Position numbers and translations under genes: made by a program. This document shows positions 26,292-34,973 of a stretch of DNA of 64,000 nucleotides, piece after piece. Within the stretch, counting starts at the first letter, position 1. Each line of letters starts with the position of its first letter. Source of the stretch: a bacterium (lineage in GTDB: Bacteria; Zhuqueibacterota; Zhuqueibacteria; Residuimicrobiales; Krinioviventaceae); NCBI GenBank assembly GCA_963693055.1, contig OY843751.1, forward strand, positions 992,001 through 1,056,000. Reading direction: 5' to 3'. The notes beneath the pieces are model-generated. The model did not search any database. It saw only the letters and a list, made by a program, of their open reading frames with translations, and had not been told where the DNA came from.

Positions 26292-28865
26292 TTAATCATT
26301 ACTTGCCTGATAATTGGGGTGTTCTATTGTAATTCCTACTTTTTTTGTATATTTTTGCCCGCTGTTCAAGTCTTTTATATTGATGATTAAATCATAAATT
26401 CCTGTTTCCTGATTTCCTACAGCCAGATTGAGGTAAATGCTTTCGTCGCGGGCTATACCCTGATAGTCAAATGCCGTTCCGGTTTGCCCGTCTTTTCCCA
26501 GCAGACTTTTAAAGAAACCATACAGTTTCTGTTCTTTTAGGTTTTCTATGGGACCAGCCGGTTTTAAACTGCACTCTAAATTGAAATGAGTTTTAAATTC
26601 ATTGTTGAGAATTAAATTGTATATTTCAAAATAGATGCCAATTGTGGCATTTGACGGATAAGCTGAAAACATGTGAGGTGTATAAGTGATATCATTTTTG
26701 GTGAATTTGGAATATTCGGTTTTTACTGTAATCGGATTGGATAGAATTACATCACTGGTTAAAAGTTGATTTGTATTATAGTTAACAATCTCAAGCGTGT
26801 CTCTATAAACTCCTGTACGATGAGATAAAAGGTCAGTAAATTGTAATTCATAAACATGAGAGCCGGGTTTGATAGAAGTACGATCTAATCTAACAGCTGA
26901 ATTGTATTTCCAGACATCCGGTCTAACATCTACCGGTACTTTTTCAGTTTTTTTGATTCGAACTGAAGGGTCCCAATTCCTGTCATACATACCTAAAAAT
27001 GTTTTCAGGTGCAATTCAGGGGGAGACTGAGAACGGTCCAGAACAGTTTGGTTGCCTTCCAGCAGATAATAAAGCTCAAGATCCGTTTGATTGTTTTCAC
27101 CTTTAAAACTCAGAAAGGTATAAGGAATGGTTAGTGGCTTTGAAATGTATCTATAATCTGAACTTTCAGTTTGTAGTGCTGATTTTAAATCATCAAGTGT
27201 TTCTTTTTTAAATTCAACACACATACGTTTAACTTGTTCAATATCAGGCCTGTCCATAAAAGAGACTACACTCAATTGCCCGTATTTAGGATCAAGGTCT
27301 TCCCGGCCTGCTGGTGCATATGGGATGGCCTCAATAACCCATCCCAGAAATCCGCCGTATTTTTTGAAATGGAAAATCATTTCTGGGCGGGTATCGGTTT
27401 TGAAATATTTCCAGCTGAGGTTCATTGGCAGGTTGTCAAAATATTCTTTACGGTATAAACTTTCACCCAGATCAGCCCTGGGAACCCGTGGCGCTCCTAC
27501 CGCCATTTGGGCTTCATCATCAGGAGATTCGTTCAGTCTTCTGGCAATTTCACCTGAATTGGCGCTGATCCCTCCAACAATATGACGCATTGACGCATCA
27601 TATTCATCCTGTTTTTTTAGACGCCATGCAATATAATCTTCTGAAATAATATTTGGCATGCCATCCATTGATCTTGCCTGGTCATCCGGGAATCCATGGC
27701 GTATAAAAATGAGCCCTAGGTCGTCCAGATCCCGTTCACTATTGATGATAGCTTGAGGAAAACCAGCTGCTTTGAGCATTTGTGAACCCTGAATATTGTA
27801 GTTGGCAAAGGGATGAGAGTCCTGATAGGCTACTTCGTTAAATCTGTTACTCAACATGTATCTGCGAAAGTTTTTTTGAGCAAATGCAAGTCTTCGGTAA
27901 TGTTCACCAATTCTTTCGTTTTCCAGAGTAGCATAATTGGGGTCGCGAACATTCCAAAAGCGTTTATAAAAAATTGGCAGGTCCTGCATGCGCGTGTTTT
28001 GTAATTTGTCATGCTCCTTATCAGTTAACAGGTAGCTAAGATCTTTATAAATTTCAATTACTGTTGAGCTGTCTTGAATGTTTTCAATAGCTTTCCAATA
28101 GTGTTTTAATCCCTTTGCATCATCCTGCATATTGAAATAGTTTCTGGCCAAAAGCAGATCAAGCATGCTTGTAGAATAATTCGGGAATATTTTTTGTGTT
28201 TCTAATAACTGATCCAGGCTGAGCTGGTAATGTCCTGCAGCAAAATGGACATGCGCGAGGTTCAGGTAATACTGGGGATTGTTCGGATTTTTTTCTATCA
28301 GATAGTTGATGGTTTCGATTATGTTTTCATTGTCTTGCATCCATATTGCAATTTCAAGGAATTGCTGGAATATTTCCTGATTATCGGGATTGTGTCGAAT
28401 GGCTTTGTTGTATAATTTTAGGGTTTGTTCCGGCATATCTAATAGTTTATTGGCATTGCCTATTTCAAGCCATGCATCTGAAATAGTGGGATCGTATATG
28501 ACAGCTTTTTCAAAATAATCGCGAGCTTTGATGATGCGTTTGGGTCGATGTTTGTAGACCATTCCCATTTGATAATATGCGCGTGCATATTCCCTGTCAA
28601 GTTGAGTTGCCCTTCTAAATTCGTTCAAGGCATCCCTCCCCGCGGGATTTTTTGAATAATAAACCATACCCATGCCATAATGTGCCTGGGCAATATCATT
28701 ATCCTTGTCCAGGATAGATTTGAACAGTTTTTCTGCTTTTTTTAATTCTTTTTTGTAGACATGTGACATCCCCTGGTCGAACAATGGCTGCCACCAAAGA
28801 TCAGCTTCTGATGCTAACAAAACCGATGAAAAGAAGATTACTGCTAAACAGGTAATATTTTTCAA
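26292..28865 (-). CDS. Exported TPR-repeat protein with GWxTD-like domain
   Basis: Signal peptide; several TPRs (AQAHYGMGMVY, ARAYYQMGMVY, DAWLEIG); FWNVRDPNYATLENERIGEHYRRLAFA and DDLGLIFIRHGFPD; C-terminal Ig-like domains. Confidence 0.75.
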   Translation of the reverse strand: MKNITCLAVIFFSSVLLASEADLWWQPLFDQGMSHVYKKELKKAEKLFKSILDKDNDIAQAHYGMGMVYYSKNPAGRDALNEFRRATQLDREYARAYYQMGMVYKHRPKRIIKARDYFEKAVIYDPTISDAWLEIGNANKLLDMPEQTLKLYNKAIRHNPDNQEIFQQFLEIAIWMQDNENIIETINYLIEKNPNNPQYYLNLAHVHFAAGHYQLSLDQLLETQKIFPNYSTSMLDLLLARNYFNMQDDAKGLKHYWKAIENIQDSSTVIEIYKDLSYLLTDKEHDKLQNTRMQDLPIFYKRFWNVRDPNYATLENERIGEHYRRLAFAQKNFRRYMLSNRFNEVAYQDSHPFANYNIQGSQMLKAAGFPQAIINSERDLDDLGLIFIRHGFPDDQARSMDGMPNIISEDYIAWRLKKQDEYDASMRHIVGGISANSGEIARRLNESPDDEAQMAVGAPRVPRADLGESLYRKEYFDNLPMNLSWKYFKTDTRPEMIFHFKKYGGFLGWVIEAIPYAPAGREDLDPKYGQLSVVSFMDRPDIEQVKRMCVEFKKETLDDLKSALQTESSDYRYISKPLTIPYTFLSFKGENNQTDLELYYLLEGNQTVLDRSQSPPELHLKTFLGMYDRNWDPSVRIKKTEKVPVDVRPDVWKYNSAVRLDRTSIKPGSHVYELQFTDLLSHRTGVYRDTLEIVNYNTNQLLTSDVILSNPITVKTEYSKFTKNDITYTPHMFSAYPSNATIGIYFEIYNLILNNEFKTHFNLECSLKPAGPIENLKEQKLYGFFKSLLGKDGQTGTAFDYQGIARDESIYLNLAVGNQETGIYDLIINIKDLNSGQKYTKKVGITIEHPNYQASND

Positions 28866-28998: not shown

Positions 28999-29574
28999 TC
29001 AAGGAGTTGTGAATGATGGCTCTGTGGGTTCTGTGATGGCCGTGTCACGTTCCCAACCGCTGTATTGTAATTCAAGGGATTCTATTGCAATTTCGTTTGA
29101 ATTGGCATCAAACTCGGTTACAGGGCTGTATTGTGCCGGCCAGCAGTTGTAAACCTTGAAGGCCATAACAATTTGTCCTGCTTCATTCAGCAATTCAATT
29201 ATTATGTCTTTTTTATATTCAGATTGGGGTGTACTAGAATTGTTATTCCAGACCTGGGTTGCCCATTGTTCAAAGGATGTATCATGAGTGCGGCCCCGCT
29301 CAAGTAAAAGAGGCTGAACAGTTGTTTTTCCGGGCACCTGCTTAACTGTACCGTTTTTGTCATTTCCTGATTTATAAACCATTATTTGAGTTTCCCGGTG
29401 CAAACCACTGATATGGAAAATTCCGGGTATATATTTCCCGTCCCATTTTACTCTGAATTTACTGCGATTATAAGGATTTGTTCGGTGTGTATTTACAGCA
29501 AACTCGATTGCAATGGATGAACCTGTTGCAAATAGTATTAAAAGGATTATCGAAACAATTCTAATTTTTTTCAT
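28999..29574 (-). CDS. Phage/eCIS tail-tube protein (T4 gp19/Afp1-like) with Sec signal peptide
   Basis: Signal MKKIRIVSIILLILFATGSSIA then IEFAVN..R.NPY...KFRVKWDGKY, LERGRTHD..FEQWA, KKDIIIELLNEAGQ...FKVYNCWP, DANSNEIAIE, GWERD...EPTEPSF; RBS AGGAG. Confidence 0.88.
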   Translation of the reverse strand: MKKIRIVSIILLILFATGSSIAIEFAVNTHRTNPYNRSKFRVKWDGKYIPGIFHISGLHRETQIMVYKSGNDKNGTVKQVPGKTTVQPLLLERGRTHDTSFEQWATQVWNNNSSTPQSEYKKDIIIELLNEAGQIVMAFKVYNCWPAQYSPVTEFDANSNEIAIESLELQYSGWERDTAITEPTEPSFTTP

Positions 29575-29598
29575 AATGAACTCCTGATTTTCAATATA

Positions 29599-30135
29599 TT
29601 ATCGAATACTGAGATCCCGTTCCCAACCTTCATGTTCCAGTACAAGTATTTCCATTGCTTCATCACTACTGTTTTTTTCCAGTTTGGTCAAGGGAACATA
29701 TTTTGCCGGCCAGCATCTGTAAACTTTGAATGCCATCAAGGTCCTGCCTGTATTGTCTACCAGTTCAATAATAATATCTTTGCGAAAATCTCTCAAAGAG
29801 ACTTCTGATCCCATTCCTCCGCTTACATAACTAACTTTATTTGCCCATTTTTCAAATTCATTGTCCATGGTGCGCGGTCTTTTGAGCACAATAGGTTGAT
29901 ATTCTGTCTGTCCGGGTGCCCTTTGTGCGGAATTGGGACTAGCTCCATTGCGATATTCAATAACCTCGGTTGTTCTTACAAGATCACTAACAAATGAAAT
30001 ATCAGGAATAACTTTCCCATCCCATTTGACATGGAAATCGACTTGTACATTCCCGGATGATGGTGGTTGAGCGAATGAATTTAAAAATAAAGTGAATATA
30101 AAGACGGAAAGTAGAATGAATTTAAATTGTTTCAT
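29599..30135 (-). CDS. Phage/eCIS tail-tube protein (T4 gp19/Afp1-like) with Sec signal peptide, paralog
   Basis: Signal MKQFKFILLSVFIFTLFLNSFA then FHVKWDGK, RTTEVIEYRNG, PGQTEYQPIVLKR, FEKWANKV, EVSLRDFRKDIIIEL, FKVYRCWP, LEHEGWERD; RBS GGAGG. Confidence 0.88.
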   Translation of the reverse strand: MKQFKFILLSVFIFTLFLNSFAQPPSSGNVQVDFHVKWDGKVIPDISFVSDLVRTTEVIEYRNGASPNSAQRAPGQTEYQPIVLKRPRTMDNEFEKWANKVSYVSGGMGSEVSLRDFRKDIIIELVDNTGRTLMAFKVYRCWPAKYVPLTKLEKNSSDEAMEILVLEHEGWERDLSIR

Positions 30136-30546
30136 ATTTTCCTCCAGGATGTTTATATAATAAACCCATACGTTTCCGGATTTATTCTATATGAGGATAA
30201 TGTTTTTCGTAATAACTTAGTATGAGCGGGATTATTAAGATATTGGTTTTTACAGGTTAATTTTTGAAATGGTATGTAAATCTGGTCTTACCCGTGAGCC
30301 TTTTTTAACAGATTTGAGGTGAGAGAAAAGTATTGTGTGATTAATTTTGAATTGTGTGGATGAACTTGAAGTTTAATACGAATGATACAAATGAAACTAA
30401 TTTTCTCATATTAGATTTACTGATTCATTTTAAAATTCCATTGGACCTTTGATAATATGTTATTTTTTTTTTTCGTATTCATTCAACAAATGTCTTGACA
30501 TTATTTGATCACTTTTAGATAGAACTTTAAGTTAAGATTATCGCAA

Positions 30547-32999: not shown

Positions 33000-34973
33000 T
33001 TATTTTACTAACAGAATTTTCTGCATTTGAATGTGATTACCGGCATTCATTATGATAAAATATGTACCGGTTGAGCAAAGTTGTTCGTTCATATCACTGC
33101 CATCCCATAAAAGATTAAATATACCTGCTGCTTGTTTCTGGTCAACAAGTGTATTGACTACACGTCCCAGGATATCTGTGATATACAGATTAACATTTGT
33201 ATCTTTAGCTAGCTGATAGGAAATCTGTGTGGTTGGGTTAAATGGATTGGGATACGCTTTCATCAGTAACGTAGTTGTGGGGACAGGAGTACTGCAAAGC
33301 GCTGTTTCAGCCAGAAATGTAACATTGCCATTTATATCTACATCTGAAAGCCGGTAGCGATAGTTGATTCCTCCTTTGACAGTATTATCTGTAAAAGAGT
33401 ATTCACTCTGGTTTGTCGTACTTCCCGCACCTAATAGTTGGTAATTTATATTATAATTTGCAATCACCTGCCACTTCAATTCCCCCGGATTTTCCATTGC
33501 CGCACGTTCGAGAATAAAACCAAGGTTATCGGTTTCACTTTGTGTAGTCCATGTCAAGATAACAGCACCCGTTACTGGTTCTGCATTCATAGAGGTCAGT
33601 TCTACAGGTAGTGAAGTATCTCTGGCGTTTTCATACGCACCCATGTCTGGCGGGGTACCGCGATCATTATCTTCAATATCTTTGGTCGGTGCGCCTGTTG
33701 CGGTCCCGGTACCAATACAGGGGCTTGTATCATCCAAATGATATCCGTTGGTAAATATCGGATCATCATTTATGTTACCGGTTCCGGTATATGCTCCTGA
33801 CGCGGATTGGATATCGCTATAGTTTACTACCAGCGTGCCGGTATTGTTAATTGAATCATCTTCTCCCCAGAGAATGCAGTTATTGATGTTCATGGTTGCC
33901 GAACCCAGGTTGCCAAGTTCTTTATGACTTTCTGGTGAGGTAACAGAAAAGGTACAGTTGGTCAGATTGACGATTCCTGCATTGTTGAAAATTGTATCAT
34001 AAGTTCCGCTATTATTTGTGTTGTCATACATGAGACAATTTGTGCAGGTTACCGTCCCTGTATTGTTATAAAAAGCGCCTCCGTTTGCGGCATTATCGGT
34101 AAATTTACTGTTACTGCAGGCAATAGTACCATCATCGTTATAAAAAGCACCACCATCATAAGCTGTATTGTTATTTGAAAACGTACATGCAGTAATTGTA
34201 TGGGTTCCGGTATGAGAACCGCTTTCAGTATAGTAGGAAATTCCGCCACCAAGAAATGCACCATTATTGTCTTCAAAAGAGCTGTTTGAGATTGTTGTAC
34301 TGCCACCATCAACTGCAATTGCCCCACAGACGGTGAGACAAGAATTACCGCTAAAAGTACAATAGTTAAAGATAGCAGAACTTGAGATATTATAAACCGC
34401 ACCGCCGTTGTTACCATAATTCCCTGTAAAAATGCAATTATTGATTGTAGGGCTGGAGCTCTGATTAAGCATTGCACCACCGGCTTTATTAGTTTCTGTA
34501 CTGTTTGCATATCCGTTGGTGAGGGTGAATCCATCCAGTACGGCAGTAGATGTTTGTGCGGAGGTGTTGGCAACAATGTGATAAGCGTTGTTTGCAGTAG
34601 TAACACTTTGATCAAGGTCGCCATCGAGTGTTGTTATATAACTTGAAAAATCTCTCTGGCTAAGCAGAGTTTCTGTGGCATTGAATCCACCATAAACGGA
34701 CACGCCATCTTTGAGCTCAAACGCGCTGGTAGGATCGTTATCAATTTGTCCTGTACCGTCATCAGGATAATAGGTTCCCTCTGCTACCCAAATTTCAGCC
34801 CCGCTACTCGCTGCTGCCAAGGCATCTTGTAAATAGTTGTAGGCATTCAGCCATGAAGTTCCGTTATTACTACCGGATGCATCAGTGTCAACATAGATTA
34901 CTTCTGCTGCTTGGGTTACAGATAAAATCGTAAATAGAAAAAGGACCGTAATGAGACTTTTTTTTAAATGCAT
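33000..34973 (-). CDS. Secreted right-handed beta-helix protein (GGA/FxxN repeats) with Ig-like and T9SS/FlgD sorting domains
   Basis: Signal peptide; IYVD...GTSWLNAY..LQDAL, IWVAEGTYYP; GGA(M/V/F) and F..N repeats; DMGAYE; SLPVEL module; AYPNPFNP. Confidence 0.85.
   Translation of the reverse strand: MHLKKSLITVLFLFTILSVTQAAEVIYVDTDASGSNNGTSWLNAYNYLQDALAAASSGAEIWVAEGTYYPDDGTGQIDNDPTSAFELKDGVSVYGGFNATETLLSQRDFSSYITTLDGDLDQSVTTANNAYHIVANTSAQTSTAVLDGFTLTNGYANSTETNKAGGAMLNQSSSPTINNCIFTGNYGNNGGAVYNISSSAIFNYCTFSGNSCLTVCGAIAVDGGSTTISNSSFEDNNGAFLGGGISYYTESGSHTGTHTITACTFSNNNTAYDGGAFYNDDGTIACSNSKFTDNAANGGAFYNNTGTVTCTNCLMYDNTNNSGTYDTIFNNAGIVNLTNCTFSVTSPESHKELGNLGSATMNINNCILWGEDDSINNTGTLVVNYSDIQSASGAYTGTGNINDDPIFTNGYHLDDTSPCIGTGTATGAPTKDIEDNDRGTPPDMGAYENARDTSLPVELTSMNAEPVTGAVILTWTTQSETDNLGFILERAAMENPGELKWQVIANYNINYQLLGAGSTTNQSEYSFTDNTVKGGINYRYRLSDVDINGNVTFLAETALCSTPVPTTTLLMKAYPNPFNPTTQISYQLAKDTNVNLYITDILGRVVNTLVDQKQAAGIFNLLWDGSDMNEQLCSTGTYFIIMNAGNHIQMQKILLVK

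Follow-up and report, generated by a model that had tools for sequence, protein, structure and literature searches.

A tail-tube gene pair with predicted export leaders in a genome without a detected contractile machine

Tail tubes are known as cytoplasm-built parts of virions and injection machines. The 64,000-nucleotide stretch of bacterial DNA analyzed here, called the window, carries two adjacent tube genes whose products begin like secreted proteins. The locus raises the question of whether these tube subunits are exported, and what they could build on their own.

The gene pair and its genome

Gene A (28999..29574, minus strand, 191 aa) and gene B (29599..30135, minus strand, 178 aa) encode tail-tube paralogues with predicted Sec leaders that share 46% identity over 145 residues. 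The open reading frames and translations confirm the initial annotation of two co-oriented genes, 24 bp apart, with tube-family motifs; B lies upstream of A. The strong ribosome binding sites described at both leader ATGs are also present: AGGAG (29581..29585, minus strand) lies within the 24-bp spacer, 6 nt 5' of the A start, and GGAGG (30141..30145, minus strand) lies 5 nt 5' of the B start. A and B are members of the gp19-like tube family. PF06841 matches A with an E-value of 8.6e-38 (129.6 bits) and B with an E-value of 3.9e-31 (108.1 bits) against a cut-off of 28.2 bits, and TIGR02241 gives 130.3 bits for A and 98 bits for B against a cut-off of 62.4; matches above both cut-offs now underlie a gp19 assignment first made from motifs. 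The closest solved relatives by sequence are the CIS inner tubes 7adz, 9r9h, and 7b5h. In the AlphaFold2 model of B (mean pLDDT 84), the tube fold comes after an N-terminal helix (residues 2–19), and the top fold matches of this model are the AlgoCIS, Anabaena, PVC, Afp, and Streptomyces CIS tubes with a TM-score of ~0.6 on the query. B is the stand-alone structure model; the fold of A was assigned from sequence matches and a complex model. By sequence and structure search, A and B resemble AlgoCIS Alg1 (7adz), Anabaena All3324 (7b5h), Pvc1, Afp1, Streptomyces Cis1, and T4 gp19. The solved CIS tubes are parts of sheath-baseplate machines, whereas A and B have leaders, and the searches revealed no sheath, spike, baseplate, or cap to go with them.

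The neighbors of the pair were identified by profile searches as a TPR/GWxTD protein, an FKBP isomerase, a DUF3052-like protein, and a sodium symporter. The locus does not belong to a prophage or tailocin: these neighbors are not tail, lysis, or head genes. A phage origin of the leader form was considered and rejected because seven of seven related viral-contig loci carry leaderless tubes. The GC contents of the two genes (0.40 and 0.39) are close to that of the genome (0.39), and a scan of the locus returned 15 promoter-like matches and 0 terminators. The 857-aa exported protein with TPR and GWxTD domains (26292-28865, minus strand) lies 133 bp downstream of A and is unlinked to the pair in other genera. 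The gene at 33000-34973 (minus strand) encodes an exported beta-helix protein of 657 aa whose C-terminus has a sorting domain (PF18962/FlgD); it is missing at the corresponding place of the same-genus locus L001.

The genome is a single 6.5-Mb contig rated 100% complete, and A and B are the only two PF06841 matches in it. Profiles for the sheath (PF17482, PF04984), baseplate J (PF04865), gp25 (PF04965), the hub (PF05954), Hcp (PF05638), and TssC/VipB (PF05943) have no match in this complete genome, and each was positive in control genomes. The Pvc16/Afp16 cap profile PF14065 also has no match, and it has none in any control genome either. Searching the genome with a sheath profile made from the nearest eCIS lineage gave no match (best E-value 0.83). 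Comparison of 1135 reading frames from 79 sheath loci with the genome recovered the tube pair and otherwise just general families, sigma-54 regulators among them. These genome-wide searches found no unlinked contractile machine elsewhere in the genome, and the absence of sheath and baseplate genes first noted for the 64 kb extends to the whole complete genome. The locus is not an eCIS or cytoplasmic CIS: it is without sheath, baseplate, gp25, and spike/hub, and its tube subunits have leaders. Nor is it a T6SS, being without Hcp and TssC/VipB.

Predicted export leaders and their distribution

The predicted signal peptide of A comprises residues 1–22 (29509..29574, minus strand) and ends in S-I-A; it was placed from the sequence and its register in relatives. 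That of B also comprises residues 1–22 (30070..30135, minus strand), ends in S-F-A, and was placed from the sequence and relatives. Both N-termini have a basic n-region and a hydrophobic core, with best 10-residue hydropathies of 3.56 and 2.87. Leaders were assigned by our own hydropathy/charge rule together with position counts and conservation in relatives. The homologue set (n = 207) combines the best 120 of 1402 sequences for the A query with the best 120 of 7237 for the B query; both lists were ranked by likeness to leader-bearing queries and are biased towards leader-bearing proteins. The tube N-arm is present in 151 of the 207 homologues, 40 of them short and 111 with a longer N-terminus. 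Among the 40 short, leaderless forms, 37 have the arm Phe 3 residues after the start. A hydrophobic N-extension occurs in 107 of the 111 long-form A relatives (28 residues long in 71 of these), and 55 of the 56 arm-less, B-type relatives have a hydrophobic leader, which substantiates the signal-peptide-like N-termini described initially (n-region, hydrophobic core, and S-I-A or S-F-A). The n-region is positive in 105 of the 107 leader-bearing A relatives, and a Tat motif is found in none of the 107. Leader likeness among relatives is 19% compared to 75% for the following 40 residues.

The residue 3 positions before the arm Phe in the 107 leader-bearing relatives is Ala in 92, Gly in 8, Ser in 4, and Thr in 3, and Ala22 of A is in register with the start Met of the leaderless tubes. 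This count agrees with the earlier proposal that A is cut where canonical tubes begin. Cleavage after the Ala22 equivalent would leave the same N-terminus as a leaderless tube after Met removal, if the rules for Sec and Met-aminopeptidase processing apply. A start-site artefact was considered and rejected: leader architecture and cleavage register are kept in more than 100 proteins, and a Met within 4 residues of the arm Phe is found in only 4 of the 107. A and B are very probably exported by Sec and cleaved. Profile search identified no outer-membrane sorting domain in either protein, which makes the periplasm the default site. The dipeptide G-C directly follows the hydrophobic core in 5 of 49 B proteins (P0158, P0160, P0164, P0171, and P0178; also in L069), and these may carry a lipoprotein signal or anchor.

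In the window's phylum (167 genomes), PF06841 is matched in 34 genomes and PF17482 in 24. Leader-bearing tubes occur in 9 of the 167 (8 pairs and 1 lone A), and PF17482 is matched in 0 of these 9. A tube and a sheath occur together in 22 of the 167; loci were read from 20 of the 22, though not every copy, and the tubes seen are leaderless. The sheath-linked count includes the unpublished G158 and G162, which give one or two rows of the tree and face analyses. Of the remaining 3 of the 34 PF06841 genomes, one has a gene truncated at a contig end, one has a leaderless orphan from another lineage, and one has a weak fragment. Sheath-domain matches were also seen in genomes without a PF06841 match (G058:C323, G040:C54, G241:C98, and G272:C438). 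A second phylum, represented by 86 genomes of unstated completeness, has 5 pair genomes with PF17482 in 0 of 5, 9 genomes with tube and sheath, 4 leaderless orphans, and 1 broken B/A hybrid. The hybrid is a single gene (L170:1408-1974, plus strand, in G243) whose first half resembles B and whose end resembles A; it contains an internal stop, is without a clear leader, and may be a collapsed B/A pair. Another pair genome, L012 (Brevinematales), also has no PF17482 match (0/1). Overall, a sheath match was found in 0 of 15 leader-bearing genomes, a count in which related genomes are not independent and most assemblies are incomplete. No leader-bearing tube was found among the sheath loci read. 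The named sources of leader-bearing relatives are KSB1, Calditrichia, Eisenbacteria, Latescibacterota, and Syntrophaceae.

B is the upstream gene at all 19 pair loci, and A stands alone at 3 loci. The recurrence of leaders in a two-gene, sheath-less context, raised initially as a check, is thus seen in 19 pair loci and in 15 genomes without a sheath match; the leader is not peculiar to this genome with its close homologues in eCIS loci, since leaders recur outside eCIS loci. No other gene family is common to more than 3 of the 21 loci compared (the same-genus locus was omitted). An ORF upstream of the pair in L007 was considered as a third tube and rejected as a pyridoxamine-oxidase-like protein. 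Fused forms were examined as a functional hint and set aside: the 77 longer tube proteins, among 7999 candidates scored, are mostly single-member read-throughs with sheath or unrelated genes. Two of the 77 have a hydrophobic start, and neither resembles a leader-tube fusion.

Leaderless orphan tube genes are common. No sheath is present at 26 such loci with at least 1 kb upstream, and 16 of 18 leaderless-orphan genomes tested, whose completeness is unknown, have no PF17482 match. Leaderless tube genes are therefore often sheath-less too, and a missing sheath does not by itself mark an exported tube. L005, L009-L011, L013-L016, L018-L022, L026, and others carry single leaderless tube genes of the same lineage that have no sheath close by, with Anaerolineales, Acidimicrobiaceae, Acidobacteriaceae, a cyanobacterium, and Nitrososphaeraceae records as sources; these genes are possibly a class of cytoplasmic orphan tubes. 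A leaderless orphan tube gene in a Flavobacteriaceae record (L027:7980-8505, plus strand) is split over two frames. Leaderless, sheath-less orphans also occur in other tube lineages (L160, L166, L169, L171, and L062), which indicates that orphaning happened more than once.

A FastTree phylogeny of 339 tube cores (duplicates and cores below 110 aa excluded) places all 63 B proteins in one clade (support 0.96) and 106 of 120 leader-bearing A proteins in another (support 0.97). A larger clade of 233 members (0.89) contains both, together with leaderless orphans and without a single one of the 61 sheath-linked tubes; support for the deep nodes is modest. A small number of leader-bearing proteins branch outside the main A and B clades. 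In L025:7650-8456 (plus strand, Terracidiphilus), a leader precedes a small helical domain, which a Pro/Ala/Thr linker connects to a tube domain that has neither arm nor tail. Its tube is nested among leaderless orphans in the tree, a position that suggests repeated, independent gain of export. The nearest sheath-linked relatives in the tree are the leaderless single tubes of one eCIS lineage, for example those of L023, L065, and L066, with a sheath gene directly upstream. They are ~50% identical to A and B and share the N-loop, the SL.DF insertion, and the EP.EP tail with A; unlike A and B, they start leaderless at Met-x-x-Phe, lie behind a sheath gene, and retain both stacking faces (0.93/0.92).

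The frequency of leaderless orphans and the B/A hybrid with its internal stop would also fit decaying eCIS remnants, with the leaders as accidental upstream extensions. Compared to the same-genus copy, mature A has a dN/dS of 0.135 and mature B one of 0.09, and the A value exceeds the 0.02–0.10 of neighboring housekeeping genes, as decay would have it. The leaders give 0.47 (A) and 1.1 (B) from few changes (8 in B). Comparison of a second pair of loci yields values of 0.15 and 0.21. Two independent genome pairs (dN/dS 0.09–0.21) thus indicate that A and B are under purifying selection, which counts against decay. The strong ribosome binding sites at the leader ATGs, the conserved leader architecture and register, and the lack of an internal Met in 103 of the 107 relatives speak against accidental leaders. 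The remnant explanation is largely refuted, and we give it almost no weight.

Stacking faces of A and B

According to the accessible text of PMC8718954, tube rings stack by placing the beta2-beta3 loop against the N-loop and alpha-loop, and lateral contacts make the beta-barrel. Deletion of the N-loop or of the loop stops tube formation in several phages, as described in the same portion of that paper. These elements are distributed unequally between the paralogues. The N-loop DPY motif is found in 117 of 120 A proteins and 0 of 63 B proteins, the NEAG turn in 117 of 120 A and 1 of 63 B, and the EP.EP tail in 108 of 120 A and 0 of 63 B. The SL.D[FY] segment is retained in 61 of 63 B and 95 of 120 A. 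The R.GG[DE]P motif is present in 41 of 63 B and 17 of 120 A compared to 58 of 61 sheath-linked tubes. The window A retains the N-loop, the NEAG turn, and the C-tail, its beta2-beta3 tip has diverged, and its SL.DF segment is deleted. The window B is without the N-loop, the NEAG turn, and the C-tail, and retains the beta2-beta3 loop and SL.DF. The N-loop of mature A (residues 23–39; 29458..29508, minus strand) is a predicted ring-stacking element based on the modeled interface and the part of PMC8718954 cited above. The C-terminal tail of A (residues 178–191; 29002..29043, minus strand) carries the EP.EP motif, which B does not have, and was delimited by motif counts and model contacts.

A model of three mature A and three mature B chains (A3B3) scored 0.64, and the best of three controls scored 0.00. 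Among solved complexes, 116 of 157 attain the complex-score mark, as do 2 of 215 mismatched pairs; these counts are only a rough guide for this case. The A3B3 runs agree in at least 92% of contacts, with a partner pLDDT of at least 75. The contacts comprise A residues 28–41, 48–53, 93–94, 129–134, 155–162, and 184–191 and B residues 57–76, 92–118, and 173–175, which correspond to the A N-loop, NEAG turn, alpha-loop, and C-tail against the B beta2-beta3 loop and helix region. These are the elements named as inter-ring contacts in the available part of PMC8718954. Barrel-edge strands are absent from the contact list, and the contacts are thus read as ring-on-ring stacking. The model is predicted to join exactly the two retained faces, with the type of stacking read from the residue lists. 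The six-chain (3+3) model may pass because it resembles solved CIS tubes, and the score reflects likeness, not binding. Formation of rings and stacking of A on B are likely.

The A-side and B-side contact surfaces of the A3B3 model were defined as face 1 and face 2, respectively. Sheath-linked tubes have identities to the sheath-linked consensus (face 1/face 2) of 0.93/0.92, orphans 0.76/0.74, A proteins 0.75/0.66, and B proteins 0.21/0.72; these scores are partly circular because the faces come from the model, whereas the element-by-element motif counts are not. Face 2 is favored in 63 of 63 B proteins, and face 1 in 98 of 120 A proteins; the 63 B proteins share a single evolutionary loss of face 1 and do not count as 63 losses. 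The values are 0.63/0.22 for the window A and 0.17/0.56 for the window B. Three lone A proteins have face 2 identities of 0.81–0.86 compared to 0.72 or less in 14 paired A proteins, a small sample (n = 3) in which one locus has 533 bases upstream and the lone proteins are also nearer the consensus overall. One face is lost in B and the other is eroded in the window A, a combination that points towards a closed double ring.

These face values bear on the idea that A polymerizes to give long tubes without a sheath, or filaments on the surface, for which B would be the nucleator, cap, or lipid anchor. The accessible part of PMC6466441 describes polytubes self-assembled by some phage tube proteins, the predicted N-terminus of mature A is in exact register with eCIS tubes, most A proteins (95/120) retain SL.D[FY], lone A genes retain both faces, and the putative lipoprotein signal of 5 of 49 B relatives could serve as an anchor. 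The window A, however, has a face 2 identity of only 0.22 and a deleted SL.DF segment, and R.GG[DE]P is rare among A proteins (17/120 versus 58/61 in sheath-linked tubes). A and B are also without an outer-membrane sorting domain, and no conserved export or anchor gene lies nearby. Filament growth is unlikely on this evidence. The initial annotation had envisaged stacked sheath-less rings: stacking is predicted here too, with A-on-B contacts, and long tubes or filaments are not supported in this genome because the A face is eroded. Open-ended filaments, pili, and matrix fibers are unsupported here for the same structural reason, one stacking face being lost in B and the opposite one eroded in A. 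Longer B-capped tubes are possible in relatives whose A keeps both faces.

The surfaces that would face outward in the closed double ring are the least conserved, with pairwise identities of 0.34 (B face 1) and 0.57 (A face 2). B does have its own nearly invariant residues, P87 and R88, on the side without the N-loop. These residues, the hollow fold, the predicted periplasmic location, and the possible lipidation of some B proteins would suit a periplasmic spacer or conduit docked on inner- and outer-membrane partners encoded elsewhere. The poor conservation of the free faces argues against docking, as do the lack of a linked partner gene in any of the 21 loci and the patchy occurrence (9/167 and 5/86 genomes), and we consider a conduit quite improbable.

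Defense genes are often small, patchy, partner-less cassettes, and so is this one. Exported one-faced rings would be natural chain terminators, and in the envelope they might act as decoys, capping the tube of a contractile phage tail or eCIS as it enters; the absence of a sheath match from the same genomes (0/15) is in line with this. The predicted A-B binding would instead occupy both working faces, ~50% identity to eCIS tubes weakens cross-binding, and the flanks read have no defense-island context. A decoy function is very improbable.

A proposed assembly and its place among known systems

The preferred reading is that A and B form a Sec-exported, periplasmic, non-contractile, closed A6B6 barrel that may hold or carry cargo in its lumen, and we put this slightly above an even chance. 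A and B would be exported unfolded via Sec and then cleaved. Each would form a hexameric ring, and the N-loop face of A would dock on the beta2-beta3 face of B. The bare side of B and the eroded side of the window A would accept no further ring, and growth would end at twelve subunits. The available sections of PMC8718954 give a ring height of 3.8 nm for Hcp, and those of PMC8894135 give a lumen of ~3.6 nm for AlgoCIS; if like solved tubes, A6B6 would be ~8 nm tall with a lumen of ~3.6 nm. Solved CIS tubes have at least 20 stacked rings, 22 in AlgoCIS, according to the same sections of PMC8894135. Without an initiator, which assembly often requires, tube proteins can persist as monomers, as stated in the accessible parts of PMC6088184 and PMC8718954. 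The closed two-ring reading applies to this genome, and most A relatives (95/120) retain SL.D[FY]. In relatives with both A faces, B would cap short tubes. We lean modestly towards this combination, closed A6B6 in the window's lineage and B-capped short A tubes in such relatives. Without a sheath there would be no contraction and no injection. The role as cargo cage or carrier is the weakest step, a guess that we hold to be doubtful. It follows from the absence of a conserved partner gene and from the poor conservation of both outer faces, which leave the lumen as the likeliest working surface.

T4 gp3 is a tube initiator/terminator with the tube fold. As a putative end ring with a single stacking face, B is like the tube initiators/terminators Afp5/Pvc5/Alg5 and Alg7. 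It differs from these proteins in that it is nested in the A-type inner-tube lineage, has a leader, and scores 32.6 bits against the CIS5 profile cut-off of 260. Hcp has a cargo chaperone role. T6SS Hcp hexamers are free tube-fold rings without a baseplate, as envisaged for A and B, according to the accessible part of PMC6088184. Unlike A and B, Hcp is cytoplasmic, depends on the T6SS, and belongs to another family (the genome has no PF05638 match). No description of signal-peptide-bearing tail-tube proteins was found in the literature searched, which mostly excluded subscription papers and supplements, and the accessible parts of PMC10553843, PMC12210884, and PMC6899500 contain nothing bearing on them. 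The initial statement that no described system has this architecture holds for that literature. The tail-tube pair with predicted leaders is real, conserved, under selection, and apparently undescribed; its architecture is well supported by sequence comparisons, and its assembly is predicted by modeling.

A stepwise domestication, in which the sheath was lost, the leader gained, the gene duplicated, and opposite faces lost, may have led to a self-limiting A6B6 nano-barrel serving as a new class of envelope cage or channel in several diderm phyla, with an independent second gain of export, combined with N-loop loss, in the acidobacterial L025. We advance this history tentatively, at a little under even. 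The leaderless orphan tubes hint at an intermediate stage that has yet to be studied. The two-gene system, potentially a naturally secreted hollow ring, is easily tested by electron microscopy. The reciprocal loss of faces suggests how an open-ended polymer turns into a fixed-size particle. Capsids and encapsulins are a comparable case of a phage structural protein turned cellular. If the proposed assembly is true, another phage structural protein would have been turned into a cellular envelope component that works free of its machine.
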